The notes under the pieces are model-generated. The model was not told the DNA's origin. It saw nothing but the letters and a program-made list of their open reading frames with translations, and made no database searches. From positions 1 through 59,501 of the forward strand of contig JBHLRA010000003.1 in NCBI GenBank assembly GCA_048883045.1: DNA of 59,501 bases, written 5' to 3'. A program made the translations under genes and the position numbers. Source of the DNA: Candidatus Thorarchaeota archaeon (lineage in GTDB: Archaea; Asgardarchaeota; Lokiarchaeia; Sigyniarchaeales; SOKP01). This document shows, piece by piece, positions 39,764-59,501 of this stretch (within the stretch, counting starts at the first letter, position 1; the number at the start of each line of letters is the position of its first letter).

Positions 39764-39768
39764 AATCT

Positions 39769-40284: not shown

Positions 40285-40285
40285 A

Positions 40286-44744: not shown

Positions 44745-44816
44745 CTTCCATCCATGGAGGGACTAAATAAATAGGCTCCAATATAATTTCTCTCTGGGGG
44801 ATAATCGTTTCTACCG

Positions 44817-45149
44817 TCATTTATTATCCCCCGAAGCTATATAAAGAGAATAAGTTTTTGCTGCATCATAACCAGTAGGTGTAAATTTTACTCCATCAAG
44901 TAAAGCATTTATCTGTAATGTATAAGGACCGTTGATTAGATCAATTGTGCTTGCCATGTCTTCATATGTATCAGATCCAGGTGTTTTAATTGATACTGTC
45001 ATAGTTCCGGCAATTACAGGTGTAGCAGATGGTACAAATTGAATTTGATGAAATAAAGCACCATTGGCATCGGTTAGGCTGACGGTTTGTGCGCCGTCAG
45101 CCTGTGACTTATCCTCAACTGAATTTTTAATAGTTCCGATATATGGCAT
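44817..45149 (-). CDS. Hypothetical head-module protein
   Basis: 110-aa ORF directly after the capsid gene. GGAGG SD. Confidence 0.5.
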   Translation of the reverse strand: MPYIGTIKNSVEDKSQADGAQTVSLTDANGALFHQIQFVPSATPVIAGTMTVSIKTPGSDTYEDMASTIDLINGPYTLQINALLDGVKFTPTGYDAAKTYSLYIASGDNK

Positions 45150-45167
45150 AAGGTTAAACCTCCAATC

Positions 45168-46184: not shown

Positions 46185-46231
46185 AATTAATTTTACCTCA
46201 CTAAATAAAGGTTACTATCAAAGTTTTAGAA

Positions 46232-47170
46232 TTAACCAGAAGTCCTTGTTACAATTCCTTTGTCTGCAAGCTGATTCAAAGCTGCTGTTTTTTGAGCTGC
46301 TGTGGCCCCTGACGGCCATTCGAGATAATCCGAAACTATCTCTGCATCTCTTACAATTGCTACTCCAGGTTGATCCGTGGCAGCAGTGGCCGTCATTGCA
46401 CCCGCAATTGTTGCTACATTAGTATTACCACCAACATTGAGATTTTCGGCAACAAATGTCCCATTATGAGTATCAACAGTTAAAGTTCCCGCTGCATCAC
46501 CTCCAGCCCAAGAACCAGATGATAAAGAAACAGCCACAACACGGGCAGTTGCAGCAGAGGTTGCACCTACAACAGTATCATTGGGGATAATCTCATAAGT
46601 TCCACCAGATGTGAAGGTTCGGGTATACTCACCTGAAGCTGAAGCATCAACGGCATCATATAAGATTCCGTAAGCTATTGCTGAACCATCTACACCTGAA
46701 AAATTAATAGCACGGACCTGGCCACCACCGGCAGGAACAGCAATTGTAAAGGTATCACCATAAACAAAATCAGTTCCCGCATCAGTCAATGTGAAATTAA
46801 TTTCATCACTCGTAAAAACACCTGTTTGACCTGCACCAGGATCAATAGCACAAATTCCAATGGTTTCACTATTGGGATTGACTACTGAAAAAACACCGCC
46901 ATTAGCTACTGCTTGAATACAAGTTAGGGTATAAGTTCCTACTATTACATTGACTCCACCAGTAACAGCAGTACAGGTTCCATTTCCTGTATTAGTTCCG
47001 CCGGCGGTTCCGGTAGTGGGTACGGTTCCAGCAGTTATTTTACCCAGAACTGCAGCAACACCTAAATCCTGAGCTGCTAGCACAGTTACTTCTTCACGGG
47101 AATGTAATACATCACTTTCCCATTTTAGGGTTCTTTGAATATCATAAGATTGTGTTGTATCAGTTGGCAT
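46232..47170 (-). CDS. Head decoration-like protein with large insertion
   Basis: 312 aa. gpD-family-like ends (EEVTVLAAQDLGVAAVLGKITAG ... AIVRDAEIV). Insertion includes the SGSWAG module (aa ~195..250). Confidence 0.5.
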   Translation of the reverse strand: MPTDTTQSYDIQRTLKWESDVLHSREEVTVLAAQDLGVAAVLGKITAGTVPTTGTAGGTNTGNGTCTAVTGGVNVIVGTYTLTCIQAVANGGVFSVVNPNSETIGICAIDPGAGQTGVFTSDEINFTLTDAGTDFVYGDTFTIAVPAGGGQVRAINFSGVDGSAIAYGILYDAVDASASGEYTRTFTSGGTYEIIPNDTVVGATSAATARVVAVSLSSGSWAGGDAAGTLTVDTHNGTFVAENLNVGGNTNVATIAGAMTATAATDQPGVAIVRDAEIVSDYLEWPSGATAAQKTAALNQLADKGIVTRTSG

Positions 47171-47502
47171 TAATTATCCTCCTTATTTACGCAATCACAT
47201 GAATTGTATTCATGTTTTCTGTTTTCTGCATTTTGAATTAAAGGGTTATCTATTTCAGCGTTATTACCTCCACTAGCAGCTTCAAAAGATCCATTATGAG
47301 AGGAGCAATGCGATCGGGCGGCTGAAGCTGTCCAGATTCGTTTTGGATAACGGTATGCTTGAATTTCTGACTTGCCAGATTTTATGCCATAAATAACATC
47401 CAGGCATTTTCCCCCGGATTTCATATCACAATTTTTACGTCTCATTGTATCATATTTATCCGGAGAATTTAATCGGCAAGCATGTTCATTTGGATATGGC
47501 AT
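47170..47502 (-). CDS. Hypothetical head-module protein (EHACRL motif)
   Basis: 110-aa ORF between the protease and decoration genes. Confidence 0.5.
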   Translation of the reverse strand: MPYPNEHACRLNSPDKYDTMRRKNCDMKSGGKCLDVIYGIKSGKSEIQAYRYPKRIWTASAARSHCSSHNGSFEAASGGNNAEIDNPLIQNAENRKHEYNSCDCVNKEDN

Positions 47503-47505
47503 AAT

Positions 47506-48723
47506 TTAGCGTCCTATATGTTCTTGTGCCCGTTTCTCAGCATCTTTGATAAGTATATTATCATTTATTGAAGTTGAATCATTATTAGGATTAGATGATA
47601 TAGATTCGATTTTAGATTCCAATGTCTTAGCTTGCATTATCAATGCTGCGGCCTGATCAGGAGTATTACCATTTTTTATTAGGTCAAATGCAAGATCAAT
47701 TTTCTGGCTGATAATACATTTATCTAAAATAGATAATATACGATCTACTTCAACTATTTGCCCGTTTTTTGTGGCTTCTGCAATCATTGCTGGAATTGCA
47801 TCTTCCATTTCTTTGGTATCTTTTTTATAGATATCAAATTCGGTCTGTAATTTAATTAGATCTGTTTTTGTTTTGTCTAGTTCTGCTTGTAAATCCATAT
47901 TATTGCCTCCATAAGTATTAATTACATTATCAAAAGTTGTCACTTTATCGGCAAGACCAAGTTCTACAGCTTTTTGGCCTTCATAAACTTGGGCCTCGGT
48001 ATTGTATATTGATTCTGGAGCAAGTCCACGATTCCTGGCTACTGTTTGCACAAATAAGTTATATGTATCATTGACACGGCTTTGTATAGACGATTTAGCT
48101 TGATCAGATAAAGGTTTATAAGGTGAACCATCATCTTTATATTTTCCAGCTTTGATTGCTGTATATTTTATGCCGTCATTTTCAAGTTTTTTGGAGATGT
48201 CAGCGTGAAGAGCAATGACACCAATTGAACCAACACCGGCTGTACGAGTTACATAGATTTTATCTGCGGCTGAAGCTATAGCATAAGCTGCAGAGTAAGC
48301 AGATTCATTTGATATAGCTATAATGGGTTTTGTACCGCGGGATGCATAGATATGATCTACTAAGTCAAAACATCCGTTAACCTGGCCGCCATTGCTATTG
48401 ATATTTAATAAAATTGTATGTATAGATGGATTATTTAAAGCTTGATCAAAATTAGCTTGAATTGATTGATAACTCATAAGGCCAGATTGAGAATTTACTC
48501 CTGTCATTGGAGCATGTGTCAATGTTCCATTTATAGGAATTATTGCTAGTCCAGATTCAGAATAAGGATTCTGTATATTATTACTGTTTTCTAATATGCT
48601 AATATTATTATTTTCTAAACCTATTCGTGGCCCAATAGCTTCTAAAATTTCATATAATTTTTCTTCAGTAATTATTAATGGCTGATTATATATTAAAGAA
48701 GCTATATGTGGTAATTTACCCAT
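47506..48723 (-). CDS. S49 (SppA/ClpP-fold) prohead protease with C-terminal scaffold-like region (lambda gpC analogue)
   Basis: 405 aa. INSNGGQVNG...KPIIAISNESAYSAAYAIASAADKIYVTRTAGVGSIGV. The C-terminal part is helical. Confidence 0.85.
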   Translation of the reverse strand: MGKLPHIASLIYNQPLIITEEKLYEILEAIGPRIGLENNNISILENSNNIQNPYSESGLAIIPINGTLTHAPMTGVNSQSGLMSYQSIQANFDQALNNPSIHTILLNINSNGGQVNGCFDLVDHIYASRGTKPIIAISNESAYSAAYAIASAADKIYVTRTAGVGSIGVIALHADISKKLENDGIKYTAIKAGKYKDDGSPYKPLSDQAKSSIQSRVNDTYNLFVQTVARNRGLAPESIYNTEAQVYEGQKAVELGLADKVTTFDNVINTYGGNNMDLQAELDKTKTDLIKLQTEFDIYKKDTKEMEDAIPAMIAEATKNGQIVEVDRILSILDKCIISQKIDLAFDLIKNGNTPDQAAALIMQAKTLESKIESISSNPNNDSTSINDNILIKDAEKRAQEHIGR

Positions 48724-48725: not shown

Positions 48726-50207
48726 CTAAAAACCTCCAGTTGATTTGCTGTGCTGTGTTCCTGTTTGATTTACTTTGCGACCGTCCGAATCAAGTTGTAA
48801 TCCAAGTTCATCTGCCAAGGAATTATCTTTTGCTATTTCCTTCATTACATCTCGTGAATTCTTACCCCGCTCACCTAATGATTCATCAAGAGATTTACGG
48901 CCTGATCTTATAGCTAAGATTTCAGCTTTTTCCGATTTAAGCGGGTCAACCCATTCCCAACCATCAATGTCCCATTTCATTTTTGAGATAAAAGATTTGC
49001 GACGATCAAGATAATTTTGTATTTTAATTATGCTGGATACATAAGCTATATCAAGCCATTCTTGAGCTATTGGACGGCACATTTGCTGGATAATTATGTG
49101 GTTTTGGAACATTCTGAATAAACGGCGGACTTCTATATAACCAGCTCGGATAGACGAATAATTAACTTTAGATAAATCTCCAGTAAGTTGCTCACGTGTT
49201 ATTCCCATACCTTTGGCTATTGAACACAGATTCCGATCGATAAAAGCTTCATAATTACCACCAACATCTGCAGGTAATGAAACATTCATTTTCTCACCAG
49301 CATTAAGATATGTCATTAATCCTGGTTCTATATATTGCACATCTTCGGTTTCGCCATCTGAATTTGTAGCTTCTATTGTCTCACCACCAAGGCCTACGTC
49401 TGGATCTCCATCGGGAGTTTCTACAAAATAAGCAACCATAGCTGCCATTTTCTTACGTGTTAATTCTGCATCTTCATATTCATCAAATTGATGCATTCTA
49501 GCTATAATAGGTGATAAGGTAGGATAACCGCGGATCTGCCCTGGACGTCGTATACGATATATATGTAAGATTTTATTTGCTGGAATACGAATAGTTGTTG
49601 TATCTGAAAATATATAAGTCTCGCCTGGATGATTTTTATATAAATGATAAGCTACACGCCTATTTGATCTATTAAATTCTATTCCTAATTTTAATGTATT
49701 TCCATTGGGGAGAATATAGCTACTTAAATCGTTTAAATGATCACATTCTAAAAGTTTTATTTGGAATGGAACTGTTAATCCAGATTTAAGAGTACGATAA
49801 ATATATTGGACAAGAATTTCACCGGATATACTTATTGTGTCTGTTGCTAAAGCTTGTAGACCATAGAAATCTAATTGCTCATTTGCATCTATCTCTAGAG
49901 CGGATTGGTCCCATAGTTCTTTTATTGTATCTGAGATGTCATCTATATTCCAACGAGGAGTTATACCACGACCAATTATATTTGCTGTTTTTGTATCTAT
50001 GCCACCTGATATTTCTGGGTTGTTACGGTGGAGATCACGGGTACGATTTACAAGATTTGTACGTGATCCGGATAAAGCTGTATTGATACCTGAAGATGAT
50101 AAGCCCCAGGTTCTAAGGCGTCGAGTTTGGCTTGCTCCTTCATAGTCTGTTGACATAGAAGTGTTGATGTTCATTTTTTTAACTAACCAAGATAGTAATC
50201 TGTTCAT
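48726..50207 (-). CDS. Portal protein, lambda family
   Basis: 493 aa. Position between gpW and the S49 protease. Lambda-portal-like sequence character. Confidence 0.8.
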   Translation of the reverse strand: MNRLLSWLVKKMNINTSMSTDYEGASQTRRLRTWGLSSSGINTALSGSRTNLVNRTRDLHRNNPEISGGIDTKTANIIGRGITPRWNIDDISDTIKELWDQSALEIDANEQLDFYGLQALATDTISISGEILVQYIYRTLKSGLTVPFQIKLLECDHLNDLSSYILPNGNTLKLGIEFNRSNRRVAYHLYKNHPGETYIFSDTTTIRIPANKILHIYRIRRPGQIRGYPTLSPIIARMHQFDEYEDAELTRKKMAAMVAYFVETPDGDPDVGLGGETIEATNSDGETEDVQYIEPGLMTYLNAGEKMNVSLPADVGGNYEAFIDRNLCSIAKGMGITREQLTGDLSKVNYSSIRAGYIEVRRLFRMFQNHIIIQQMCRPIAQEWLDIAYVSSIIKIQNYLDRRKSFISKMKWDIDGWEWVDPLKSEKAEILAIRSGRKSLDESLGERGKNSRDVMKEIAKDNSLADELGLQLDSDGRKVNQTGTQHSKSTGGF

Positions 50208-50432
50208 TTAATAACCTTTGCCAGTTGCAACATAACGATGTCTTGCATTTCCGGCGGTTAAATTTATATCACGTTTTATTAAAGCTCTAAGTTTTATTAA
50301 ATCATCAAGATTAGATTCTGAATATTGTATTGTTTTACCTGAAGAAAAACGTACTAAGACAACACGGGTGCCTGTACTAAGATCTGTTATTGCTGATTCT
50401 ACAGAAGTTAGATCTGAAGATGTAAAAGCCAT
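50208..50432 (-). CDS. Head-to-tail joining protein, lambda gpW-like
   Basis: 74 aa. Position immediately upstream of the portal. Pattern L..VE.AI..L..G..VV.V....G..I.Y. Confidence 0.6.
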   Translation of the reverse strand: MAFTSSDLTSVESAITDLSTGTRVVLVRFSSGKTIQYSESNLDDLIKLRALIKRDINLTAGNARHRYVATGKGY

Positions 50433-50498
50433 GATAACATCCTTTGAATGATATATGATTATATAAAAATTCTTTTCTATATATATAATACAATAATT

Positions 50499-50527
50499 TT
50501 TAGATTTTTACAATATTTTGGCATAAT
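50499..50527 (+). promoter_or_regulatory. Candidate sigma-70-type promoter for the plus-strand cassette
   Basis: TTTAGA, then 17 nt, then extended -10 TGgCATAAT. About 120 nt upstream of ATG 50648. Confidence 0.3.
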
Positions 50528-50647
50528 ATATGCATAGTAATTGGGATAGAAATTAAATTGTAATTAAATTGAAGAGAATTAAAAAAGTTGCCGATAATAT
50601 AAATAGAGCAGGAAATAAGATAACTTAACCGAAAGGGGAATAAGAAA

Positions 50648-50854
50648 ATGTACTTAGATAAACCTAATTATGAAGATTATAAAAATCACTGTCATATTTC
50701 TATTATTTTTGAAAGCAAAACCAGTTCTAAAAAATTAAGATTATTAACCAATCTAACTACCCTTCAATCACTTTTTGAAGTCACATATAACTTAACTTAT
50801 AGACAATTTAATATATTAAAAAATGCAATTGATTTTTATAATAAATTACCATAA
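50648..50854 (+). CDS. Hypothetical small protein (plus-strand cassette)
   Basis: 68-aa ORF. AAGGGG SD. Confidence 0.5.
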   Translation: MYLDKPNYEDYKNHCHISIIFESKTSSKKLRLLTNLTTLQSLFEVTYNLTYRQFNILKNAIDFYNKLP

Positions 50855-50867
50855 GGAGACAGACAAA

Positions 50868-50969
50868 ATGACAATCTCAACCAAATTATCAATAGATTTT
50901 AGAAATATTTATTATGGTAGTTGGGCAGGTATTTTAATTATTGGTATTATTTGTTTAGCTATTCTATAA
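50868..50969 (+). CDS. Hydrophobic micro-ORF (33 aa, plus-strand cassette)
   Basis: AAGGAG SD. MTISTKLSIDFRNIYYGSWAGILIIGIICLAIL. Confidence 0.4.
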   Translation: MTISTKLSIDFRNIYYGSWAGILIIGIICLAIL

Positions 50970-51000
50970 TAATAAATTTCTAAGAAAGGAGATAAATAAA

Positions 51001-51222
51001 ATGTCACATCAAATAAATTTAATAAAAGATTTAGCAGATATTAAATACGAAATAGTTCTAGCATCATCAAAAGAAGATGGTAAAAAATTGACAGCTATTT
51101 GCAGACCATTTTCTAAGACTTATACTTATCGTTTATATTATGAATGGGGAATTAGTAGCAAAAACCCATTTGATGAACATATAGATTTAAGAACAGCAGT
51201 AGCAGCATATAACAATATTTAA
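51001..51222 (+). CDS. Hypothetical small protein (plus-strand cassette)
   Basis: 73-aa ORF. AAGGAG SD. Confidence 0.5.
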   Translation: MSHQINLIKDLADIKYEIVLASSKEDGKKLTAICRPFSKTYTYRLYYEWGISSKNPFDEHIDLRTAVAAYNNI

Positions 51223-51238
51223 TTACAGGTAGCCAATA

Positions 51239-51331
51239 ATGTCAAATAAAACTGAAAGCTGGGAAGAATGTATTGCTTGGATTAATAAAATAATAGAAGA
51301 TTATAAAAAAACTAAAAAAGAAAGGGGGTGA
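51239..51331 (+). CDS. 30-codon ORF (plus-strand cassette)
   Basis: MSNKTESWEECIAWINKIIEDYKKTKKERG. Weak SD. Confidence 0.25.
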   Translation: MSNKTESWEECIAWINKIIEDYKKTKKERG

Positions 51332-51430
51332 TATTATGTATTAGTTTAACCCAAAATAAATGTTTGATCAGTCATAAACCAAAACTTTAACATCTAACAG
51401 TCAAATGAATCAGCATTATTATCTTTTTAA

Positions 51431-51464
51431 AGCGTATAATCAATTTCGATTATACGCTTTTTTT
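51431..51464 (+). terminator. Rho-independent terminator of the plus-strand cassette
   Basis: Perfect 11-bp stem AGCGTATAATC / GATTATACGCT with a 6-nt loop, followed by T7. Overlaps the convergent terminase stop codon. Confidence 0.7.
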
Positions 51465-53340
51465 ATCGCATTCTTGTTTTTAATCTTTTTCTTTTTGGGC
51501 TGGATTTAATAATTTTTGTAGGTCTATTTTTGGGGTCGAATTGTTTCATAAGTTTCCGACCAAGTCCAATTCTTAAAGCTGCAGCCAATGCATATACCTC
51601 ACAATCCAAAGCTTCATTTCTTGAACCTGAAGGCAAAACCCAATTATAACTCGGAAATCCATCTTTATATTTTATAACACGTTTTTCCGAGGTAAGCTGA
51701 AGATAATAATCATCATCAAGACCTTGCGGAAAGTGCATCATACCAGGACCTGGTTGTTTTATTGTTAGCCTAGAATAAATCAATGACTTTGCTGTATCTG
51801 TACCTATTGGCCATAATTCAACACCATGTTTTATTACAGTTCCTTTATAATTGACATCTTGTTTCGTTGGGCGACCTAGAACTGGTTTACGAGGTTGTGC
51901 CATTCCTTTTAATGCCATAGGCCGAAGAATTGATTTTGAGCGTACATAATTATATACATCATGTGTATGATAACCTGTATCTATTCCGGAACATTGTATT
52001 AATAATGGATGTTGATCATTATTTCGTATAAGTGTTCTATTCATCAATCCTGTTAATTCATCCCAAGTTGATTTGTCTTTAGGATCTCCAAATATTTCAC
52101 CCCAGAAAATAAGCCATGATTCTAAATCATTGCCCCAGGCTTTTATTATTACAGCTAGACGGTCATCTTGAACATCAACACCAGCAGTGAGGACAAGACC
52201 ACCTTTAGGAATTGTTAGTGGTTGGTATTGCTCAGCACGATTTCGGATTATTTCCCAGTTTGGCCGGTCTGCTTCAGTTCCAGATGGTTCACCAAGACGG
52301 GTGTTGATCCATGCTTTTATTGATTCAGGGTATTTTTTAGCTTCAAGAAATTCCTGGACCATTTGTGGCCAGGATACCCAACCAACAGGACTATATAGAG
52401 AAGATAATTGATATCCTCGGCTTATTTCTGATCGTTCCGGATGAGTTGATATCCATTTACCTTTAGATAACATTTCTGTTTTTGAAGTTTCATATATAGG
52501 TTCATGGCATTCTTTACAGATATAGCAGACTGATTCAGGGATTAATTGACCAACTTCATCACGTTCAAATTTTATTCCATGTTTTATTTCAGGACCGCCC
52601 CAGATTAGACGCTGCATAAAACCACAATGTGGGCAAGGAACATGATAATATCTTTGGTCAGATTCTTTAAAAAGTTTTTCTATGCGGGAAATATCACGTT
52701 CAGTTGGAGTACTAACATAATATAATTTTTTATCATTTCCAAATGCATCAGTCCTCTTAGGAAATAATATTAACGGATCGCCTTGTCCATCCATATCTTG
52801 TGGGAATTCATCAATATCATCTAACATCATGTAACAAACTGATACAGAACGTGCAGAAGCCCCAGAATTTGCACCTGTAAAAGCTGTTGACCCACCAGGA
52901 AATTCTTTTAACAATAAAGTATTTCCTGATGATTTTTTCGACGGATCTCCAAAAATATTTAATAATTCAGGTACTTGTTTTATAGACGGACCAAATTTTT
53001 TTTTACTATGTTTTTCTGCCATATCAACAGTTGGTAAAGTCATCATACAGGGTCTAGGATATCTATGTGCAATATACAAGAACCAATTATTTCCAACTTC
53101 AGTAGCTCCAATTTGCGTTGGTTTCATGAATATTACACGTTGTATAGGAGACCCAACACTAAGACATTCCATTATTTCTCTTAAATATGGTGTCCGAGAC
53201 GTTGAATATTTTCCGTATTCATGTGCAGCTTCTTTTGGGAGATAACGGTAAGTATCAGACCAATCAGGGAGGGATATATCAGGGTCCGGGGTTAAGCCAA
53301 GTTTTATGTATTTTGTATAGAGTTGGTAGCCGTCTTGCAT
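51463..53340 (-). CDS. terL: Terminase large subunit, lambda GpA family
   Basis: 625 aa. YHVPCPHCGFMQRLIW zinc-finger-like element. Walker B-like MMLDDIDEF. Size and synteny are typical of the GpA family. Confidence 0.9.
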   Translation of the reverse strand: MQDGYQLYTKYIKLGLTPDPDISLPDWSDTYRYLPKEAAHEYGKYSTSRTPYLREIMECLSVGSPIQRVIFMKPTQIGATEVGNNWFLYIAHRYPRPCMMTLPTVDMAEKHSKKKFGPSIKQVPELLNIFGDPSKKSSGNTLLLKEFPGGSTAFTGANSGASARSVSVCYMMLDDIDEFPQDMDGQGDPLILFPKRTDAFGNDKKLYYVSTPTERDISRIEKLFKESDQRYYHVPCPHCGFMQRLIWGGPEIKHGIKFERDEVGQLIPESVCYICKECHEPIYETSKTEMLSKGKWISTHPERSEISRGYQLSSLYSPVGWVSWPQMVQEFLEAKKYPESIKAWINTRLGEPSGTEADRPNWEIIRNRAEQYQPLTIPKGGLVLTAGVDVQDDRLAVIIKAWGNDLESWLIFWGEIFGDPKDKSTWDELTGLMNRTLIRNNDQHPLLIQCSGIDTGYHTHDVYNYVRSKSILRPMALKGMAQPRKPVLGRPTKQDVNYKGTVIKHGVELWPIGTDTAKSLIYSRLTIKQPGPGMMHFPQGLDDDYYLQLTSEKRVIKYKDGFPSYNWVLPSGSRNEALDCEVYALAAALRIGLGRKLMKQFDPKNRPTKIIKSSPKRKRLKTRMR

Positions 53341-53445
53341 TTAATAAATATATTCTTCCTCTTCTTCATCCCAATAATTATTTTTTTCATCATCTTCATC
53401 ATCTTCCAACCATAAATCTTCTGGGTCTATATAATCTTCTATCAT
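53341..53445 (-). CDS. Highly acidic 34-aa micro-ORF abutting terL
   Basis: MIEDYIDPEDLWLEDDEDDEKNNYWDEEEEEYIY. ATGA overlap with the upstream stop. Its TAA is directly followed by the terL ATG. Confidence 0.45.
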   Translation of the reverse strand: MIEDYIDPEDLWLEDDEDDEKNNYWDEEEEEYIY

Positions 53446-54194
53446 AACACTTTCTCCTCTACTTTATTTATAAAATCCTGGCCAATTACATTTATTACGT
53501 CTTGTTTATCTGAATCTGACCATTTTTCCCAATTTGGCATTTTTCCACGTTTAGCGGTATTAAAACGAATAGATCTAACAAAATCATAATATGTTCGAGG
53601 CGTAAATCTTAATCCCAAAAATCCAACCATTTTATACCAACCATTGCCCATTTCACTGTATAGATCTTTTATATCAAATATACAATCAGCAGAATCTATA
53701 TAACATGATATCTTTTCTTTCCAATACCATGCAAGTTGTTTTTTTCCTGTATCAATTTTTGGATCATTACTTTTGAGCCAACTTACACCATTCTCATATC
53801 CTCGATTAGCCATAGAAGGAATAAAAGTTCTATAATCACGTACAAGACCAACTATTTTGCAACCAGGAAAAGTTTTCCGCAATGGTTCAGCCAAAGAGAA
53901 TAAATTATGATTACATTCAATATAATAGCATTTTTTATAGAGAATCCTGGCACAGCGCACATTCGCCATACGAGCTTTGCGACATGCCCGGACTGCATCA
54001 TTAAATTTAAGTTTTTTGGCATGATACAATAAACCGATCGGTTTTATCATAGGTGGCGGTTCATGTACTGCTAAGACTGAATTGTAACAAACATTTAATG
54101 CCCATGCAAGCCATTGTGTTGCTGTGCGACCAGTTGATAAGAAGAAGATTGGTGTTACAGGGCCTGAGATATGTTTATTTTGGAGCATAATCAT
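53442..54194 (-). CDS. Sulfotransferase-fold protein (paralogue of 10070..10822)
   Basis: 250 aa. IFFLSTGRTATQWL...HEPPP...YIECNH...GLVRD...AWYWKEKI parallels IFTLTTGRSGTALL...HEPKP...YIETCH...ILHRD...CYWYTQEI. Confidence 0.45.
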   Translation of the reverse strand: MIMLQNKHISGPVTPIFFLSTGRTATQWLAWALNVCYNSVLAVHEPPPMIKPIGLLYHAKKLKFNDAVRACRKARMANVRCARILYKKCYYIECNHNLFSLAEPLRKTFPGCKIVGLVRDYRTFIPSMANRGYENGVSWLKSNDPKIDTGKKQLAWYWKEKISCYIDSADCIFDIKDLYSEMGNGWYKMVGFLGLRFTPRTYYDFVRSIRFNTAKRGKMPNWEKWSDSDKQDVINVIGQDFINKVEEKVL

Positions 54195-54376
54195 AATTCA
54201 ACCTTAGTAAATATTAAATCGATATCAGGATCTTGAGCTTCTATATGTATAAACTTGCCATTTTCTAATCTCAAAGTAAGAGATGATAATCTAAATTCTG
54301 ATCCTTTTGTCAAAAATGTGGCCGTTTTTCCATCTAATTCAGCAACATTTTTACCATTTAATTCTTCTGTTTTCAT
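54191..54376 (-). CDS. Hypothetical small protein
   Basis: 61-aa ORF. ATGA overlap downstream. Confidence 0.45.
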   Translation of the reverse strand: MKTEELNGKNVAELDGKTATFLTKGSEFRLSSLTLRLENGKFIHIEAQDPDIDLIFTKVEL

Positions 54377-54393
54377 AATTTATATTCTCCCAT

Positions 54394-54555
54394 TTATAAA
54401 GAAATATATTCTTTTATTTGATCTTCGGTATATCCTAGATCTGTCAATAATTTTTTAAATACAATTATGCAATCTGTTAATTCCGTTGGCCATTTATCAT
54501 TTTCAGTTACTTCTATTATATTACCTCCAATTGAACCTAATGTTATCTTAATCAT
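54394..54555 (-). CDS. Hypothetical small protein (not in ORF track)
   Basis: 53-aa ORF MIKITLGSIGGNIIEVTEND.... ATGA overlap with the upstream stop. Confidence 0.4.
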   Translation of the reverse strand: MIKITLGSIGGNIIEVTENDKWPTELTDCIIVFKKLLTDLGYTEDQIKEYISL

Positions 54556-55070
54556 AATTTATATTCTCCTATTCCTATAGTATCACACCAAGGCTTGATG
54601 CCATTATTATATATCTCTAAAGGTTTTATATTCACCCAGGAAAACAAAGTCTTCATTCCGTCTGGCAATATACGCCAATAATCAGGTTTATGGTGTTCCG
54701 GCCCTGTGCCTGGAGCTATGAGACATATTAAACATCCTTTTGGATCTGCTACAGATATAAGTGATTGCATGAACATGAAATGATTGTCAACATGTTCAAG
54801 AGTCTGGCCAGAGATAATGATATTGAATTTCATTATAAGTTGAGATCCTAGATAATCTTTTGGGCTAACTATTATATCAACATTCGGGCCATCAACAATA
54901 TCAACTCCAAGATAACTACAAGAGAATTCAGTATGCTTCTGTAATAGATTATTATAGGTCTTGTGGCCATGAACAGAAAGCGAACCTATATCAAGTATAT
55001 TATAAAATTTATTCTTTATTGGATATTTAGTAAAAAAATTATCCATTTCTTTTAAGCTGCTTTTATGCAT
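54552..55070 (-). CDS. Class I SAM-dependent methyltransferase
   Basis: 172 aa. ILDIGS (motif I-like). IIISGQTLEHV. Confidence 0.6.
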   Translation of the reverse strand: MHKSSLKEMDNFFTKYPIKNKFYNILDIGSLSVHGHKTYNNLLQKHTEFSCSYLGVDIVDGPNVDIIVSPKDYLGSQLIMKFNIIISGQTLEHVDNHFMFMQSLISVADPKGCLICLIAPGTGPEHHKPDYWRILPDGMKTLFSWVNIKPLEIYNNGIKPWCDTIGIGEYKL

Positions 55071-55753
55071 TTAAGATAACCTCCAGAGTTATAAGTTATT
55101 CCAAATCGCTCACAAGTTCTATCAACAAGAAACCGGCCACAATAATTAAGAAATTCGTCCACAGCTTCAGCAGGGCCAGGTTTAGGACCTGTGTTAAGTC
55201 CGTGGTAGCATATTGTATCTTCGACGATGTAATATTGGTCTAAAGTAATGAATTGAGAATATATGTTAAGGTTTGCAAGTGTGTCAGCATAAGTATGGGA
55301 GCCGTCATCAATAACCATAATTTTAGGATTATCATGTTTTAAAAAATGTCCTAATCTCCAGCCATTTTTTATTAAATAGTCCAAATCACTTATTACTTTT
55401 TCATCAGTGGCTTTACCTTTTAAATATGAAATACCATCATAATTCATTGTATTATGATTACCTGGATCAATCGTAATTATTGTTGCAAATCGCTCTTGCC
55501 CATGAATAGCAGTTAATAAATTCCGTAAATATTTAGCCGATCCTCCTTTATAAGTTCCAATCTCAATAATAATATCAGGTTTAGTACGATAAATGATTTC
55601 TTGATATATAAATAAATCAAGTGGGTTTTTCAAGATCGGCAAGCCACAATAATGAGATTGCTGCAAAGCTTTATGAAACATAGGCAAAAAATCTTTTAGT
55701 TTCATGTTTAATAATGATTCAAGTTTTTGTGGTTGGGCTTGTTTTGGCATCAT
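55052..55753 (-). CDS. CmcI-family (cephalosporin hydroxylase-like) methyltransferase
   Basis: 233 aa. GLPILKNPLDLFIYQEIIYRTKPDIIIEIGTYKGGSAKYL closely follows the CmcI family signature. Confidence 0.75.
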   Translation of the reverse strand: MMPKQAQPQKLESLLNMKLKDFLPMFHKALQQSHYCGLPILKNPLDLFIYQEIIYRTKPDIIIEIGTYKGGSAKYLRNLLTAIHGQERFATIITIDPGNHNTMNYDGISYLKGKATDEKVISDLDYLIKNGWRLGHFLKHDNPKIMVIDDGSHTYADTLANLNIYSQFITLDQYYIVEDTICYHGLNTGPKPGPAEAVDEFLNYCGRFLVDRTCERFGITYNSGGYLKCIKAA

Positions 55754-55896
55754 TCACCATTCCATAATTTCTCAATAGCATTCTTAAAACCATTATTAGC
55801 AACACATACTCCAAATTCAACTGCACCTAAAGGAATCCATATTGGCGAGCCTATTATAATAACCAAACTTATTAAGATATATTTTATTACTTTCAT
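55750..55896 (-). CDS. Small membrane protein (48 aa)
   Basis: Start moved to ATG 55896 (MKVIKYILISLVIIIGSPIWIPLGAV), which overlaps the upstream stop as TAATG. Confidence 0.45.
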   Translation of the reverse strand: MKVIKYILISLVIIIGSPIWIPLGAVEFGVCVANNGFKNAIEKLWNGE

Positions 55897-56477
55897 TATG
55901 ATTGCTCCGTCCAATGAAGATGATTTTTGCCACGTTTGCGAATAATACTTAATCCGCAATGTGGTCCAGGTAATGTTACACATTCATAATTATGAAACCA
56001 AAAAGAAGGTTCGATAAATTTTTCATGCAAACTGTGACCCACTTTCCATGCATCATTACAATATCCAGGCTTAAGATATTTTTTGTTTATCGGGTAAGTA
56101 TCATGTAGTAAAATTAAACCAGTGCCGGGTGTTACAAATTCCGACCATGTGAGAAAATCTTGTTTTAATGAATTATAAGCATGATTTGCATCGATGTATA
56201 ATAAATCTATTGTCAAATCTTCTGGCCAGAGTTTAGCAGCTTCTTGGGTTGATTTTTCAATAACTTGTATTGATATCTGTTTCTTAATCCAAGCATCCTC
56301 TTTTTTGAGATCTATATATTTTTTTAAGTTTATATCACACCCAAACGCATAACTTTGAACATATGGCACAACAGCATTAAAAACATAACCTGCTGCAATT
56401 CCAAGTTCTACATAAACTTTAGGTTTAAAAAGACGTGCAAGTTCTACAATTAATGGTTTGTGTTCATTCTGTGTCAT
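55896..56477 (-). CDS. Class I SAM-dependent methyltransferase (Methyltransf_24-like)
   Basis: 193 aa. VYVELGIAAG and LLYIDANHAYNSLKQD motifs. Confidence 0.65.
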   Translation of the reverse strand: MTQNEHKPLIVELARLFKPKVYVELGIAAGYVFNAVVPYVQSYAFGCDINLKKYIDLKKEDAWIKKQISIQVIEKSTQEAAKLWPEDLTIDLLYIDANHAYNSLKQDFLTWSEFVTPGTGLILLHDTYPINKKYLKPGYCNDAWKVGHSLHEKFIEPSFWFHNYECVTLPGPHCGLSIIRKRGKNHLHWTEQS

Positions 56478-56673
56478 TTTTTACCTCGCAATATTCACAA
56501 TTATTTCCAGCCCAGGAATATATACATTTAGTCCAACTATCAAATATTTTTGTATTAATTTTAACCAATATTTTAAAATGTTCTGACATATTCTCTGGCA
56601 TAGAAAACGCGATATCAACAGGTTTAAACTTGCATACGTTTCTATGTATACAATATAAGCAACTTTTATTCAT
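56464..56673 (-). CDS. Small Cys-rich protein
   Basis: 69 aa. CLYCIHRNVC ... CEYC. C-terminal KNDTE overlaps the next start. Confidence 0.5.
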   Translation of the reverse strand: MNKSCLYCIHRNVCKFKPVDIAFSMPENMSEHFKILVKINTKIFDSWTKCIYSWAGNNCEYCEVKNDTE

Positions 56674-56685
56674 TTATTGCTCCCA

Positions 56686-56898
56686 CTATTTTGTTATTAA
56701 TTTATATAAGTCAGGATATTTAAAATTTACTTCATCAGCAATTTTACAAGGTTCTTTCCATCCATTATGTGTTCTTTTCCAATTATCATCTCCCCATTGA
56801 CCTAAACTTATTGGAGTTTCACCGCATTTCACACATATTGGTAATTCCCCCCGATACCACAAGTGTGTATTATCATACTTATGTCTATTCTGTGTCAT
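56686..56898 (-). CDS. Small Cys-containing protein
   Basis: The track start at 56907 is GTG. ATG 56898 (MTQNRHK) has AAGGTGG upstream and repeats the junction seen at 56477. Confidence 0.5.
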   Translation of the reverse strand: MTQNRHKYDNTHLWYRGELPICVKCGETPISLGQWGDDNWKRTHNGWKEPCKIADEVNFKYPDLYKLITK

Positions 56899-57070
56899 TT
56901 TTACCACCTTCAGCTTCTTTTAACTCACATCTCATAACATACGGGCATGATTCTTTATTGCCACAGATTTTAATACCATCATATGATCCAATAACATAAT
57001 CACATTTGGCAGGCTCTTGGACAGTGCAAATATCTAACGTGCTGTTGAAAATATCAATTTTGTTTGACAT
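56885..57070 (-). CDS. Small Cys-rich protein
   Basis: ATG 57070 (MSNKIDIF...) follows the upstream TAA by 1 nt and has an SD. The alternative start is ATG 57085. The C-terminus is KNDTE. Confidence 0.5.
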   Translation of the reverse strand: MSNKIDIFNSTLDICTVQEPAKCDYVIGSYDGIKICGNKESCPYVMRCELKEAEGGKNDTE

Positions 57071-57071
57071 T

Positions 57072-57239
57072 TTATTTCCCTTCATATTTTGTCAATTTAT
57101 ATGTTTCCTGGTAAAAACAATTTTGTGTATAAAGACATAAGCTAATGTAACATCCTGCTGCTATATGTGCTCTATTATTACAGTTAGCACATGAATTAAC
57201 CACATTTAAAGTACAAATTTTTATTTTTGCATCTTCCAT
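57072..57239 (-). CDS. Small Cys-rich protein (not in ORF track)
   Basis: 55-aa ORF MEDAKIKICTLNVVNSCANCNNRAHIAAGCYISLC.... AAAGGGGG SD. Confidence 0.4.
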   Translation of the reverse strand: MEDAKIKICTLNVVNSCANCNNRAHIAAGCYISLCLYTQNCFYQETYKLTKYEGK

Positions 57240-57240
57240 T

Positions 57241-57318
57241 TTATGCCCCCTTTAAACAAAATACTATGAATGCCAAGACTAAAAAACAAATTGTGAACGG
57301 TCCTAAGATATTAGTCAT
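57241..57318 (-). CDS. Hydrophobic micro-ORF (25 aa)
   Basis: MTNILGPFTICFLVLAFIVFCLKGA. Overlaps the GT gene end by 8 nt. Confidence 0.3.
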   Translation of the reverse strand: MTNILGPFTICFLVLAFIVFCLKGA

Positions 57319-58054
57319 TTTTATTTCCTTCTCTCCATTTTCGGATTGCTCTTAAGTAACTTTTATGTTCTTCACGTCTGCGTTTAGATAAATGCAAATT
57401 GTGTGCCGAAAGATCTATTTTAAGCTGTGTTGATGTAATATGGCCATGATGATATACATAATTTCCATAGTTAATGTTTATGCTATAGCCTAATCTGCGT
57501 AAATGTGACATGATCCAGTTATCACCATACCAGATTTTACACTCTTCCGGAAAAGGAGGAATTTCATCAAATATTTGTCGAGGGATAAACCAGGCGTATC
57601 CATTTCGTGTTTTAGTTTTGCGCACTTTGTATGATACTTGAACATCTTGTAATTTAGATAATTTTCCCACAGTTTGGGGATAGAGAAGAGATATATTTTT
57701 ATGTGTATTATATGAGAGAGAAATATTTTGTATGAAGTAGGGTGATATTTCTATATCATCGTTTAAAAAACCTGCAATACCATAATAAGGAATATATTTA
57801 GCTAATATATCATAACCTAGTGTCCAAGCTTCATTTGTTCCTAGATCAGGCATATAATATCCGCGGTTACATTGCGGGGGATAACGTCTATATGCTATAT
57901 CTAAATCAAAATGAGGATTTATTATTCCCTGTCCATATTCGCTAACATCTATAATAATTAATTTATCAGGTTTTACAGTTCCTTGAGCTAATTGTTCGAT
58001 TAATTTCTTTGCAAGTTCTGTTTGTACTACTGGGATTATTATGCCAATTTTCAT
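57311..58054 (-). CDS. GT-A fold (family 2-like) glycosyltransferase
   Basis: 247 aa. MKIGIIIPVV...LIIIDVSE. FLNDDIE (DxD-like). Confidence 0.65.
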   Translation of the reverse strand: MKIGIIIPVVQTELAKKLIEQLAQGTVKPDKLIIIDVSEYGQGIINPHFDLDIAYRRYPPQCNRGYYMPDLGTNEAWTLGYDILAKYIPYYGIAGFLNDDIEISPYFIQNISLSYNTHKNISLLYPQTVGKLSKLQDVQVSYKVRKTKTRNGYAWFIPRQIFDEIPPFPEECKIWYGDNWIMSHLRRLGYSININYGNYVYHHGHITSTQLKIDLSAHNLHLSKRRREEHKSYLRAIRKWREGNKND

Positions 58055-58055
58055 T

Positions 58056-58217
58056 TTATCCCCTTATTATTAAATAAAATATTCCTAGTAAAAAACTTCC
58101 GCCTATTGCTATAAATAAACAACTTGGATAGTTTCGTTTAAAAATTGTATTATTAACATCTATGATACTTGCTGAAATCCACATTATTGCATGTGCCCAA
58201 AACCAAATATTATTCAT
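58056..58217 (-). CDS. Small membrane protein (53 aa, not in ORF track)
   Basis: MNNIWFWAHAIMWISASII...FIAIGGSFLLGIFYLII. ATGA overlap with the upstream stop. Confidence 0.35.
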   Translation of the reverse strand: MNNIWFWAHAIMWISASIIDVNNTIFKRNYPSCLFIAIGGSFLLGIFYLIIRG

Positions 58218-58672
58218 TTTACTAAATCCTCCAATATTTTATTTATTTCTTCGCCTACTATCTTCTTAGTTTCTTTATCGGCAAATTTATTTTTTATCAT
58301 CAATAAAGCATCACGTATTTTGCGCCCTTGTTCAAATGCTGCTTTTTTAACATCGACCACTGAACACAATTCATTCTCTTCCTGTTTGTATTGTAGTTCC
58401 GCGCGTGCTGCTTTCATTTCTTCATGTTTGGCACGGGCAGAATGATATCTTTGCACATAATCGCGTGTTAATGAATCTGCAGGGCCGGTTTTAAGTTTAT
58501 GTGCATTATGGCCAGTACCTCCACGTTTCGCCAATTCATCAAAATTTTTGTCTAAATCAATATAACCATCTTCATCTCTTGTTATTTTTCCAGCTTTGAT
58601 TAATTGAGTTATACGAGAACGGTTTAGACCTAATTCCCGCGCCAAGTCTGCTGGCTTTAATTTTATACCCAT
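58214..58672 (-). CDS. HTH protein, candidate terminase small subunit (lambda Nu1-like)
   Basis: 152 aa. N-terminal HTH (LKPADLARELGLNRSRITQLIKAG) followed by a helical charged region. First recognisable packaging-type gene inside the putative cos end. Confidence 0.45.
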   Translation of the reverse strand: MGIKLKPADLARELGLNRSRITQLIKAGKITRDEDGYIDLDKNFDELAKRGGTGHNAHKLKTGPADSLTRDYVQRYHSARAKHEEMKAARAELQYKQEENELCSVVDVKKAAFEQGRKIRDALLMIKNKFADKETKKIVGEEINKILEDLVK

Positions 58673-58676
58673 AATT

Positions 58677-58781
58677 CTATCTTAAATCATAAAAAATAGA
58701 AATTATTATTGTCGCAATAAATATTCCTAATGAGAAATACACTAATGCTGTACATAAATTACTAACTTCAAAAATTGTCAT
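58677..58781 (-). CDS. Hydrophobic micro-ORF (34 aa)
   Basis: MTIFEVSNLCTALVYFSLGIFIATIIISIFYDLR. Confidence 0.3.
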   Translation of the reverse strand: MTIFEVSNLCTALVYFSLGIFIATIIISIFYDLR

Positions 58782-58803
58782 GATTAGCACCTGGACTTCC
58801 TAA

Positions 58804-59208
58804 TTATTGATTAACTTCTATATTTTCAATTTGGATAATACTTTTAATCCTAAAACTCCCCGGTACTGGAGGAGCTCCGGTCTGATTCTGATTTACTTCA
58901 TTCGAACTATCGGAAGTCAAACCATCATTATCATATGCCCTAAGTACCCAATAATAATTCTTTCCATCCGGAACATTTTGCAAAGTGTATTCCCGTGCCG
59001 TGGCATCTTCTATTGTAGCTATTGGTGCTTCAAAATTATATGCTCCTGTTTCCCCTTCACGTTGAAATAATTTAAAACCAGCAAGATCGGGAACAGTTTG
59101 CATTCCCCAGGCAAAAGTAATTCCGGTTGTTGCATGGGATAGTGATGTAACACTCAAAAAAATAAAACATGTTAGCAATAGAATTAAAATAATTTTAAAA
59201 CTTCTCAT
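58804..59208 (-). CDS. Secreted fibronectin type III-like domain protein
   Basis: 134 aa. Signal peptide MRSFKIILILLLTCFIFLSVTSLSHA. FN3-like YYWVLRAYDNDGLTSDSSNEV. Confidence 0.6.
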   Translation of the reverse strand: MRSFKIILILLLTCFIFLSVTSLSHATTGITFAWGMQTVPDLAGFKLFQREGETGAYNFEAPIATIEDATAREYTLQNVPDGKNYYWVLRAYDNDGLTSDSSNEVNQNQTGAPPVPGSFRIKSIIQIENIEVNQ

Positions 59209-59239
59209 ACTCTAAACCTCCCTAGAAAATTGCCAGGTG

Positions 59240-59425
59240 CTAATCAAATTTTATTGGCTCTATAGGTTCAAGGAAATAAGATCCATAATCCATTTCTTCT
59301 TTAATAGAATAACCATGATCTCCATATACATAAAAAATTAATTCACCTTCTTTTTTAACTACTGTGTTCTTATCACAATCAACGTCATAAAAACGATAAT
59401 ATCCATCTTGTTCAGGAATCTTCAT
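59240..59425 (-). CDS. Hypothetical small protein, paralogous to the C-terminal half of 138..581
   Basis: The track start at 59446 is TTG. ATG 59425 (MKIPEQDGYYRF) has GGGAGG 5 nt upstream. Confidence 0.5.
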   Translation of the reverse strand: MKIPEQDGYYRFYDVDCDKNTVVKKEGELIFYVYGDHGYSIKEEMDYGSYFLEPIEPIKFD

Positions 59426-59490
59426 TCTTACCTCCCATCTGTTCAAAAACTAAACAAAAAACATACCCTTTTACGTGCCCTATTTTCGCA

Positions 59491-59501
59491 AGTCTGCGGT
59501 C
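59491..59501. repeat. Right copy of 11-nt direct terminal repeat AGTCTGCGGTC
   Basis: Identical to 1..11. Confidence 0.95.

Follow-up and report, generated by a model that had tools for sequence, protein, structure and literature searches.

Evidence for an accessory glycan-building and glycan-tailoring cassette between the terminase genes of an uncultured phage

The comparisons presented here lend good support to the view that positions 53341-58217 of the 59.5-kb window (contig JBHLRA010000003.1; 'the window' denotes the whole stretch of DNA analysed, 59,501 nt) carry an accessory cassette for building and tailoring a glycan, set between the genes for the small (terS) and large (terL) terminase subunits of a phage. 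This segment, hereafter the island, holds 16 minus-strand open reading frames (ORFs), which separate terS from terL by 4.9 kb of cargo, and is marked out by its enzyme classes (one glycosyltransferase, three methyltransferases and a sulfotransferase-like protein), its operon-like packing, its conservation and its patchy distribution. The initial annotation of this DNA had listed these enzymes together with a series of very small ORFs; every item was found where it had been placed, on the minus strand, and the enzyme classes were correct and jointly resemble a set for building and tailoring a glycan. Of the interpretation then offered, the glycan-tailoring set and the operon with terS and terL have held, whereas the virion target has not; nor does the island look recent. 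We do suggest that the cassette may glycosylate a phage-made, probably a virion, protein, but we hold this tentatively and give it somewhat less than an even chance.

The enzymes and the genes that enclose them are as follows.
58214..58672, minus strand: terS, small terminase subunit, 152 aa, with an N-terminal helix-turn-helix; phrog_57 'terminase small subunit' at E=1.4e-18, residues 4-150
57311..58054, minus strand: GT-A fold glycosyltransferase, 247 aa, assigned from an AlphaFold2 (AF2) model and Foldseek
55896..56477, minus strand: Methyltransf_24 S-adenosylmethionine (SAM) methyltransferase, 193 aa; PF13578 at 2.9e-11, 44.6 bits (cut-off 26.3), profile positions 1-105 of 105
55052..55753, minus strand: CmcI/rhamnosyl O-methyltransferase family protein, 233 aa; PF04989 RMNT_CmcI at 7.8e-30, 104.6 bits (cut-off 23.2)
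54552..55070, minus strand: third class I SAM methyltransferase, 172 aa; Methyltransf_23 at 1.1e-3, phrog_32762 at 1.9e-6
53442..54194, minus strand: sulfotransferase-like protein of the 3'-phosphoadenosine-5'-phosphosulfate (PAPS) type, 250 aa, assigned from motifs and profile relatives
51463..53340, minus strand: terL, large terminase of the lambda gpA type, 625 aa; PF05876 GpA_ATPase at 3e-73, PF20454 GpA_nuclease at 1e-90, phrog_15 at 5e-226

Enzymes of the cassette

Judged by its AF2 model (alignment of 15 relatives; predicted local distance difference test score (pLDDT) 89.1, predicted TM-score (pTM) 0.88), the 247-aa protein is a GT-A glycosyltransferase by fold, and its assignment to CAZy family GT2 by sequence is not possible; of the earlier label 'GT2-like', the GT-A fold is thus borne out but a sequence-level GT2 match is lacking. 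Foldseek searches of the PDB with this model placed ppGalNAc-transferases, POMGnT1, the chondroitin polymerase K4CP, TarS and WrtF at the top (E about 1e-8, query TM-score (TMq) about 0.6), and among the 373 matches at E≤1e-3 the top 50 listed are all glycosyltransferases, mostly of recognised GT-A families. In BFVD the top matches are small phage GT2/GT-A proteins (E down to 2e-11), including glycosyltransferases of Gordonia phages to which the similarity is at the level of fold only; a sequence profile of the family reached PDB sequences only at E=0.1-0.2. Residues D36, S38, N98-D99-D100 and Y176-G-D-N-W180 are invariant in the 15 homologues, and they include the acidic motifs of a GT-A enzyme, namely an N-terminal Asp (D36), a DxD-type pair (N98-D99-D100) and a downstream Asp/Glu (D178, within YGDNW). 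These acidic residues presumably correspond to D39, D98, D99 and D191 of SpsA. The family is rare, with only about 15 relatives among 5.8 billion proteins, and tblastn against 50,697 deposited phage genomes gave nothing at E≤1e-3. A profile search of 185,579 GTDB species genomes likewise returned no relative, so that it yielded neither a prophage nor a clue to the host.

Family membership would place the Methyltransf_24 and CmcI-like proteins among sugar-O-methyltransferases and the third enzyme among generic class I methyltransferases. The Methyltransf_24 protein is 41-71% identical to its counterparts in related phage loci (L numbers throughout) L002, L006, L007/L010 and L024, and the third methyltransferase is 35-87% identical to those of L002, L006, L007 and L024-L026, its homologues in L006 and L007 matching Methyltransf_23/11. 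The CmcI-like gene occurs only in the close relatives L002 and L019. Its product matches the family profile over the full length (residues 30-228, profile positions 4-204 of 206) and is matched by CmcI structures at 4e-5; against the NCBIfam model RhmsylMtase (NF045824) it reaches 68.7 bits, far under the equivalog cut-off of 400, and by its sequence we regard it as a family member, which does not imply substrate specificity. PDB entry 6g7d, a weak match from the methyltransferase searches, is presumably a sugar O-methyltransferase.

The sulfotransferase-like protein is itself below threshold (PF13469, 19.1 bits with a cut-off of 27; PF17784, 16.2 bits with a cut-off of 22.8), and its placement comes from its relatives. 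A profile built from six homologues retrieved 1114 representatives; 51 of 62 sampled match Sulfotransfer_3 (PF13469, best 1e-15) and 31 of the 62 match Sulfotransfer_1 (PF00685), one profile relative also matching Methyltransf_24. The motifs STGRTAT (residues 18-24) and VRDYRTFIPS (116-125), which we take to be the 5'-phosphosulfate loop and the 3'-phosphate-binding motif (R...S), are among the most conserved columns: S18, G20, R21, R117 and S125 are at least 90% conserved in the 62 relatives, and H42 and E91 are invariant. An AF2 model from a 6-sequence alignment reached a pLDDT of 48.8 and was not used for fold search. PDB sequence searches with the single sequence and with the profile gave no match, nor did a search of the 50,697 deposited phages, and a cluster look-up of the relatives gave no informative names; the subfamily is essentially unannotated. 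The claim that the protein has a paralogue in the same genome was confirmed, since it is distantly related (hhalign probability 94%) to the product of a gene at 10070-10846.

That second sulfotransferase-like gene, with motifs TGRSGT and HRDP...S, lies in the replication region, and its neighbours within 10070-14773 encode an ERCC4 nuclease with helix-hairpin-helix (HhH) motifs, a Sak4-like protein, a PAPS_reduct+DUF3440 protein and a ParB_N protein. A second glycan-like block of five genes stands at 21339-26876 and encodes proteins of 458 and 390 aa, a class I methyltransferase (23628-24296), a 257-aa protein and a GT2 enzyme (21339-22556; PF00535 at 8.5e-8). It is kept as a separate five-gene unit in IMG/VR locus L099, where the same replication genes follow, and three of its five proteins have no family match.

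Gene packing and distribution among relatives

From terS to terL the genes are spaced by -19 to +17 nt, mostly with stop-start overlaps, which bears out the chaining described in the initial annotation, and no terminator-like hairpin was found inside the island; only two lie within 50000-59501, downstream of or inside terL. Promoter-like sites occur at the shuffled expectation (60 against 56) and permit no inference on internal promoters. By its layout the island, chained with terS and terL, looks like part of a single operon. The label 'late strand', on the other hand, proved uninformative: the replication genes (PolA with a uracil-DNA-glycosylase (UDG) domain, helicase, ERCC4 and a PAPS-reductase/ParB pair) share the island's strand, and nearly every gene of the window, including all sizeable ones, is on the minus strand, the exception being a small plus-strand cassette at 50648-51331.

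We collected the loci of relatives through the glycosyltransferase and found two arrangements. In type A (the window, L002, L006 and L019-L021) the order is terS, a variable stretch, glycosyltransferase, micro-ORFs, Methyltransf_24, in some cases the CmcI-like gene, third methyltransferase, sulfotransferase, a second variable stretch and terL. In type B (L010/L007, L024/L041, L025 and L026; reduced in L011/L049) it is terS, sulfotransferase (L010 only), a large protein (L010 and L024), terL, a peptidase_M15-like gene, Methyltransf_24, third methyltransferase, one or two glycosyltransferases and gpW. The conserved large type-B proteins of the terS-terL slot (541-955 aa; L010 3284-6151, L024 817-2451, L008 4651-6276) start with 'MGKG/MARG...' and have no Pfam match.

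Across these loci the glycosyltransferase, Methyltransf_24 and third methyltransferase, usually with the sulfotransferase, recur in relatives whose TerL is 46-83% identical to that of the window. The first three stand together in L002, L006, L010, L024 and L041, in varying order and always flanking terL; L026 has the glycosyltransferase and third methyltransferase only. Glycosyltransferase-like homologues at 27-35% identity still adjoin a Methyltransf_24-like gene in L009 and L013-L015; GT1 and hexapeptide acyltransferase genes are neighbours in L009, and the jumbo-phage cluster L013-L015 also has, by sequence inspection, a hexapeptide-repeat-like acyltransferase. Backbone and cassette lose identity to the window side by side (in L006, TerL 52%, capsid 65%, glycosyltransferase 38%, Methyltransf_24 43%, sulfotransferase 41%), and the GC content and tetranucleotide usage of the island are those of the genome; we therefore argue that the cassette is old in this lineage. 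The idea of a recent foreign island was rejected on that composition, and the sharing of the enzyme core with phages of only 46-52% TerL identity, in two arrangements around terL, speaks against it too. Reads of sister samples mapped onto the island gave essentially no coverage.

For a sample free of ascertainment through the glycosyltransferase, 62 IMG/VR loci were gathered through the decoration protein and kept if TerL was at least 43% identical and the terL region visible. Cassette genes were present only in L041, L046 (identical in contig to L010), L049 and L011, and were absent from L038/L039, L042, L044, L045, L048, L050, L052, L069-L071, L082 and L093. The synteny comparison that the initial annotation had proposed, with relatives in which terS and terL adjoin, could thus be made: terS overlaps terL in L048, and a single gene of about 185 aa separates them in L039 and L052, from which it follows that the segment is accessory. 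Other cargo in the slots around terL comprises MazG (L019, L020), a C5 DNA methylase (L002), a DUF4406-like protein (L006), a SpoU methylase with a DprA-like protein (L008) and a peptidase. On these comparisons both flanks of terL appear to be exchangeable cargo slots, and the glycan cassette an accessory, mobile and yet long-resident occupant in a minority of the phages.

Microproteins and junction repeats

The four Cys-rich microproteins and the tiny membrane and acidic ORFs named in the initial annotation are all present (membrane, 53, 25 and 48 aa; acidic, 34 aa). The small ORFs and two junction repeats are listed in reading order.
58056..58217, minus strand: tm53, hydrophobic ORF of 53 aa, in ATGA overlap with terS and filling the variable slot that separates terS from the glycosyltransferase gene
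57241..57318, minus strand: tm25, 25-aa membrane micropeptide MTNILGPFTICFLVLAFIVFCLKGA, frame and sequence kept in L002, L019 and L020 by DNA alignment
57072..57239, minus strand: cys55, 55-aa Cys-rich ORF with 6 Cys, window-specific
56885..57070, minus strand: cys61, Cys-rich microprotein with four invariant Cys, spaced C-x7-C-x13-C-x5-C in the window
56879..56902, no strand assigned: junction repeat copy 2, family D1, 88% identical to copy 1; the end of cys61 ('...KNDTE' and stop) overlaps the start of cys70 ('MTQNRHK')
56686..56898, minus strand: cys70, 70-aa microprotein with CxxC and one further Cys, 86-88% identical in L019 and L020
56464..56673, minus strand: cys69, 69-aa Cys-rich ORF with CxxC...CxxC and 6 Cys in all, window-specific
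56458..56481, no strand assigned: junction repeat copy 1, a 24-nt direct repeat of family D1; the end of cys69 ('...KNDTE' and stop) overlaps the start of Methyltransf_24 ('MTQNEHK')
55750..55896, minus strand: tm48, 48-aa membrane ORF, present among the Logan gene calls, with a hydrophobic ORF of 50 aa at its position in L002
54394..54555, minus strand: s53, 53-aa ORF; the ORF found at this place in L002, also of 53 aa, is not homologous
54191..54376, minus strand: s61, 61-aa ORF whose 29-nt start region is repeated at 54552-54580
53341..53445, minus strand: acid34, 34-aa highly acidic ORF abutting terL; the slot in L002 holds a 301-aa C5 DNA methylase

The four Cys-rich proteins (55, 61, 70 and 69 aa with 6, 5, 3 and 6 Cys) contain 4.3-10.9% Cys against 1.67% in large ORFs. 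No micro-ORF of the island has a match in Pfam, PHROGs or NCBIfam, and for cys55, cys69, tm53, s53, s61 and acid34 no homologue was found in the relatives examined; the tm53 slot holds an 87-aa Cys protein in L002, MazG in L019 and L020 and a 159-aa protein in L021. Three of the small ORFs are conserved. The homologues of cys61, in L002, L019, L020 and L021, lie each time in the interval between glycosyltransferase and Methyltransf_24, and comparison with L002 indicates strong purifying selection, because cys61 is 98% identical in amino acids at 89% in nucleotides while flanking genes stand at 65-71% amino acid identity; a search of IMG/VR for cys61 gave no match. The best-conserved non-enzyme stretch against L002 is tm25 (83% of nucleotides), which is absent from the Logan gene calls. 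As to cys70, only three further relatives were found among 5.8 billion proteins, one of them without the first Cys of the CxxC, and in L020 the ORF runs in frame into Methyltransf_24, whose own start codon persists. The idea that the Cys microproteins are obligatory partners of the enzymes was rejected, as they are absent from distant carriers of the cassette.

The two 24-nt junction repeats bracket an insert of cys70 and cys69 that is absent in L002, and the same junction (N-D-T/S-K/E-stop, then M-T-Q-N) recurs at cassette borders in L019, L020, P0173 and P0174; it may well mark recombination at a short sequence that came from the 5' end of Methyltransf_24. A further 29-nt repeat, GGAGAATATAAATTATGA (54373-54401 and 54552-54580, 86% identical, family D5), comprises, for each of two adjacent micro-ORFs, the start and the ribosome-binding region. 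Short conserved start-region sequences seem to recur at cassette borders. For genome organization, what these observations suggest is that the flanks of terL serve as exchangeable slots in a lambda-like head module, with a recurring short junction at the borders of micro-ORF inserts.

Proposed function and target

We infer donor, acceptor, timing and chemistry as follows. The GT-A enzyme would glycosylate an acceptor with a nucleotide-sugar as donor; the three methyltransferases of the island would methylate the transferred sugar at the expense of SAM, and the sulfotransferase would place on it sulfate from host PAPS. The five enzymes would act in the cytoplasm, since none of them has membrane segments or signal peptides, and the acceptor should be accessible there. 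Given the translational chaining from terS to terL, the cassette genes are probably made together with the terminase, and since the island has one glycosyltransferase only the glycan would be small. The acceptor that we favour is a phage-made protein, with virion proteins as first candidates and the conserved microproteins as second.

Leaning towards a protein acceptor, the best PDB fold matches of the glycosyltransferase are protein O-glycosyltransferases, and mycobacteriophages, discussed below, offer a precedent for such genes acting on virion proteins. In addition, the glycosyltransferase-like gene of IMG/VR locus L012 (3791-10666) comes after genes for a GT-B glycosyltransferase and for a pair of proteins (1149 and 455 aa) that consist largely of mucin-like Ser/Thr repeats, neighbours that, by their sequence, hint at a protein acceptor. 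The N-terminal region of the 1149-aa protein looks discoidin-like.

Several points weigh against a virion target or against the proposal as a whole. The fold matches do not separate protein from glycan acceptors, as TarS, K4CP and WrtF score similarly, and at the sequence level the enzyme matches no glycosyltransferase family, PF00535 included, whether in Pfam (E≤0.1), in PHROGs or in NCBIfam. Alignments of the capsid and decoration proteins of carriers and non-carriers gave no distinguishing insert, tail or Ser/Thr feature. The initial annotation had reasoned that co-expression with packaging genes fits virion decoration; the same slots, however, hold cargo unrelated to virions (MazG, C5 DNA methylase, DUF4406-like protein, SpoU methylase), so that position beside terL is weak evidence for such a target. 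Only about a quarter of the same head lineage has the cassette and about three-quarters do without it; the three membrane micro-ORFs could indicate a membrane-linked acceptor; and the phage is known only from metagenomes (uncultured, sediment).

An extended form of the proposal, which we think rather unlikely, is that virion proteins carry a small O-methylated and sulfated glycan, with cys61, cys70 and tm25 as dedicated adaptors or carriers, giving a charged, methyl-capped coat that would alter adsorption to sediment particles, host recognition or stability. If true, it would be the first sulfated glycoprotein of a bacteriophage. More generally, were the virion the target, sulfation and multiple methylation would be added to phage surface chemistry, with a bearing on phage-particle and phage-host interactions in sediments.

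The strongest competitor, unlikely in our estimate though far from negligible, is remodelling of the host envelope: the enzymes would act on lipid-linked precursors from which the host builds a surface polysaccharide (O-antigen, capsule or teichoic acid), and the receptor would be altered in such a way that neither superinfecting phages nor progeny virions could attach to infected cells or debris. TarS, K4CP and WrtF, which the glycosyltransferase resembles in fold, are polysaccharide-building GT-A enzymes, the island has three small membrane ORFs of which tm25 is conserved, and the patchy accessory distribution resembles that of other host-interaction cargo. Serotype conversion is, moreover, a known role of phage glycosyltransferases (PMC12619734). 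Yet the ORFs scanned include no Gtr-type flippase, polytopic membrane transferase or integrase, and the genome, with its own PolA and helicase, looks lytic; a surface change made from a late operon would be effective only shortly before lysis; and no link to a known polysaccharide locus emerged, the glycosyltransferase being unmatched in the 185,579 GTDB genomes and both it and the sulfotransferase in the 50,697 phages.

That the genes share no common pathway, and that independent morons have piled up in an insertion hot-spot, we consider improbable. It is true that their variable and unrelated cargo clearly marks both flanks of terL as hot-spots, and that six of the micro-ORFs (cys55, cys69, tm53, s53, s61 and acid34) lack homologues; the core enzymes, however, stay together down to about 46-50% TerL identity and across the move from one side of terL to the other. 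We argue for one pathway rather than unrelated morons because the glycosyltransferase, Methyltransf_24 and third methyltransferase co-occur and because the pairing of glycosyltransferase with Methyltransf_24 persists in distant and unrelated contexts.

The microproteins raise a further reading, in our view very unlikely, in which cys61 and perhaps cys70 would be substrates for glycosylation, methylation or sulfation, yielding a bioactive peptide that lysis sets free, akin to a glycocin or other ribosomally synthesized and post-translationally modified peptide (RiPP). Its attractions are the place of cys61 between glycosyltransferase and Methyltransf_24 in relatives, its four invariant Cys and strong purifying selection, and the in-frame run of cys70 into Methyltransf_24 in L020; as Methyltransf_24 retains its own start codon there, this 'fusion' may be incidental. 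The core of glycosyltransferase, methyltransferase and sulfotransferase occurs without cys61 or cys70 in L006, L010, L024-L026 and L041, the island encodes neither a leader or double-glycine motif nor an ABC transporter-peptidase or a thiol-disulfide oxidoreductase, and in one relative of cys70 the CxxC is without its first Cys. Glycocins have the Cys pattern (C-x6-C)2, unlike the C-x7-C-x13-C-x5-C spacing of cys61.

Least probable of all, and very much so, is hypermodification of phage DNA or nucleotides around packaging as a means of evading restriction, in spite of the terminase next door and of slot-mates such as the C5 DNA methylase (L002), the DUF4406-like protein (L006; we take this family to be nucleoside 2-deoxyribosyltransferase-like) and the SpoU methylase with the DprA-like protein (L008). 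DNA-glycosylating phage glycosyltransferases are known, according to the passage on them in PMC12619734 (citing Pyle et al. 2024). The methyltransferase families, PF04989 rhamnosyl O-methyltransferase in particular, nevertheless point to sugar O-methylation, and no thymidylate-synthase-family hydroxymethylase or other base-activating enzyme was found among the Pfam-scanned ORFs, most of 30394-48723 having been scanned with PHROGs only or not at all. To our knowledge there is no sulfated DNA modification, which counts against this explanation as well.

Comparison with known systems

Phage glycobiology is a young field, in which glycosyltransferases have known roles in virion glycosylation (in mycobacteriophages), DNA glycosylation and serotype conversion. 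Phage glycan-modifying cassettes are therefore known as a kind, and the island fits no described system; our literature searches gave no phage-encoded set made up of a glycosyltransferase, three methyltransferases and a sulfotransferase. Nor did phrase searches turn up any report on a phage or viral sulfotransferase, and a search for terminase, glycosyltransferase, methyltransferase and sulfotransferase in combination matched only work on Pelagibacter genomes. It is unusual for such a cassette to stand in a terminase operon, accompanied by conserved Cys-rich and membrane micropeptides.

The closest parallel is with mycobacteriophages, whose O-methyltransferase and glycosyltransferase genes modify capsid and tail-tube proteins and, in cluster O, are arranged as an O-methyltransferase followed by three glycosyltransferases, according to the relevant passages of PMC11600133 and PMC12619734 (both citing Freeman et al. 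2023). The island resembles these virion glycosylation cassettes in joining a phage glycosyltransferase to a sugar-type O-methyltransferase, in being accessory and patchy, and in forming a cytoplasmic set that could act on virion proteins before assembly. It differs in that its glycosyltransferase has no detectable sequence similarity to theirs (tblastn, 50,697 phages) and in combining one glycosyltransferase with three methyltransferases and a sulfotransferase, set between terS and terL.

Three other systems share some features with it. The A064R protein of chlorovirus PBCV-1 has two rhamnosyltransferase domains and a rhamnose O-methyltransferase domain and acts on the capsid glycan; a viral GT-A enzyme again works with an O-methyltransferase, which in PBCV-1 methylates a deoxyhexose, and the window has a protein of the CmcI/rhamnosyl O-methyltransferase family, but PBCV-1, compared by description only, is a eukaryotic giant virus with N-linked glycans and no sulfation. 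In rhizobial Nod-factor tailoring, the sulfotransferase NodH, the methyltransferases NodS and NoeI and the GT2 enzyme NodC likewise bring together a glycosyltransferase, SAM methyltransferases and a PAPS sulfotransferase acting on one small saccharide; the Nod system is, however, bacterial, its product is a lipo-chitooligosaccharide, homology is at family or superfamily level at most, and the island has neither acyltransferase nor exporter. Sublancin, made from the precursor SunA with the GT2 S-glycosyltransferase SunS on prophage SPbeta, and glycocin clusters in general offer a phage-borne GT-A enzyme beside small Cys-rich peptides; in contrast, the island has no leader, transporter-peptidase or oxidoreductase, its Cys spacing is different, and its core occurs without the peptides in distant relatives.

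Phage genome and further observations

Read along the minus strand from the right end, ORFs of 68 aa, 134 aa (secreted) and 37 aa precede terS, the island and terL; beyond terL comes a stretch of about 1 kb with four small plus-strand ORFs, and then gpW, Phage_portal_2, an S49 protease, a gpD-like decoration protein (46232-47170) and a gpE-like major capsid protein (45168-46184); putative tail proteins are encoded within 36694-38954. The order of the head genes is that of lambda: gpA-type TerL, gpW, portal, S49 protease and gpD- and gpE-like proteins stand as in the lambda packaging module (cos, nu1, A, W, B, C, D, E), with the difference that terS and terL are split by the 4.9-kb cargo and that a second cargo slot lies between terL and gpW. 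The small subunit, earlier called 'Nu1-like', is supported as such by phrog_57 and by position but not by a Pfam Nu1 match; it is 67-89% identical in L002, L019, L020 and L021, where its position is unchanged. The best deposited relatives of TerL are those of Wolbachia phage WO, at 43% identity; a megablast of the island region against deposited phages and a single-sequence TerL scan of IMG/VR gave no match.

An exact 11-nt direct repeat, AGTCTGCGGTC, occurs at window positions 1-11 and 59491-59501 and nowhere else in the window, the first 70 nt of the window have 56% GC against 33.5% overall in this AT-rich sequence, and a Logan contig assembled independently stops at the window's last base. 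Because of the terminal repeat and the gpA terminase, the window is probably a complete linear cos-type genome, about 59.5 kb long, whose 11-nt cohesive ends were filled in when the library was prepared. The features of a lambda-like cos terminase are found together here (gpA ATPase and nuclease domains, a small subunit upstream and the 11-nt terminal repeat, from which cohesive ends are surmised). On this reading some 1.3 kb would separate the island from the left cos end, a position comparable to that of nu1 and A in lambda.

Window positions 50433-51462 are the only plus-strand stretch near the island and contain four ORFs (68, 48, 73 and 30 aa) without a family match; a strong 13-bp hairpin with a T-run at 51429-51460 ends the stretch and abuts the terL stop. 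It fills the terL-gpW slot, in which type-B relatives hold glycosyltransferase and methyltransferase genes. Upstream of terS, 58804-59208 encodes the 134-aa protein, with a signal-peptide-like N-terminus, fibronectin-III-like by eye and without a family match, and 59240-59446 the 68-aa protein ('...EQDGYY...FLEPIEPIKFD'), also without one; both are kept at that place in L002, L019, L020 and L021.

Elsewhere in the genome, 3156-5801 encodes a single 881-aa protein that combines a family A DNA polymerase, a 3'-5' exonuclease and an N-terminal domain of the uracil-DNA-glycosylase superfamily. A domain of about 60 aa ('...GATS..TA.VV...LSSGSWAG.DAAG.L...', 37-46% identity) is common to the decoration protein (46232-47170; 312 aa, in which extensions are added to a gpD-like core), a protein of 540 aa (40286-41908) and a tail-terminator-like protein of 230 aa (38262-38954), and on this evidence could be a module displayed on several virion proteins. 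Finally, the proteins encoded at 39769-40383 (204 aa) and 41909-42313 (134 aa) are paralogues, with 33% identity over 129 aa (E=7.5e-15), the longer of which has an N-terminal hydrophobic segment.

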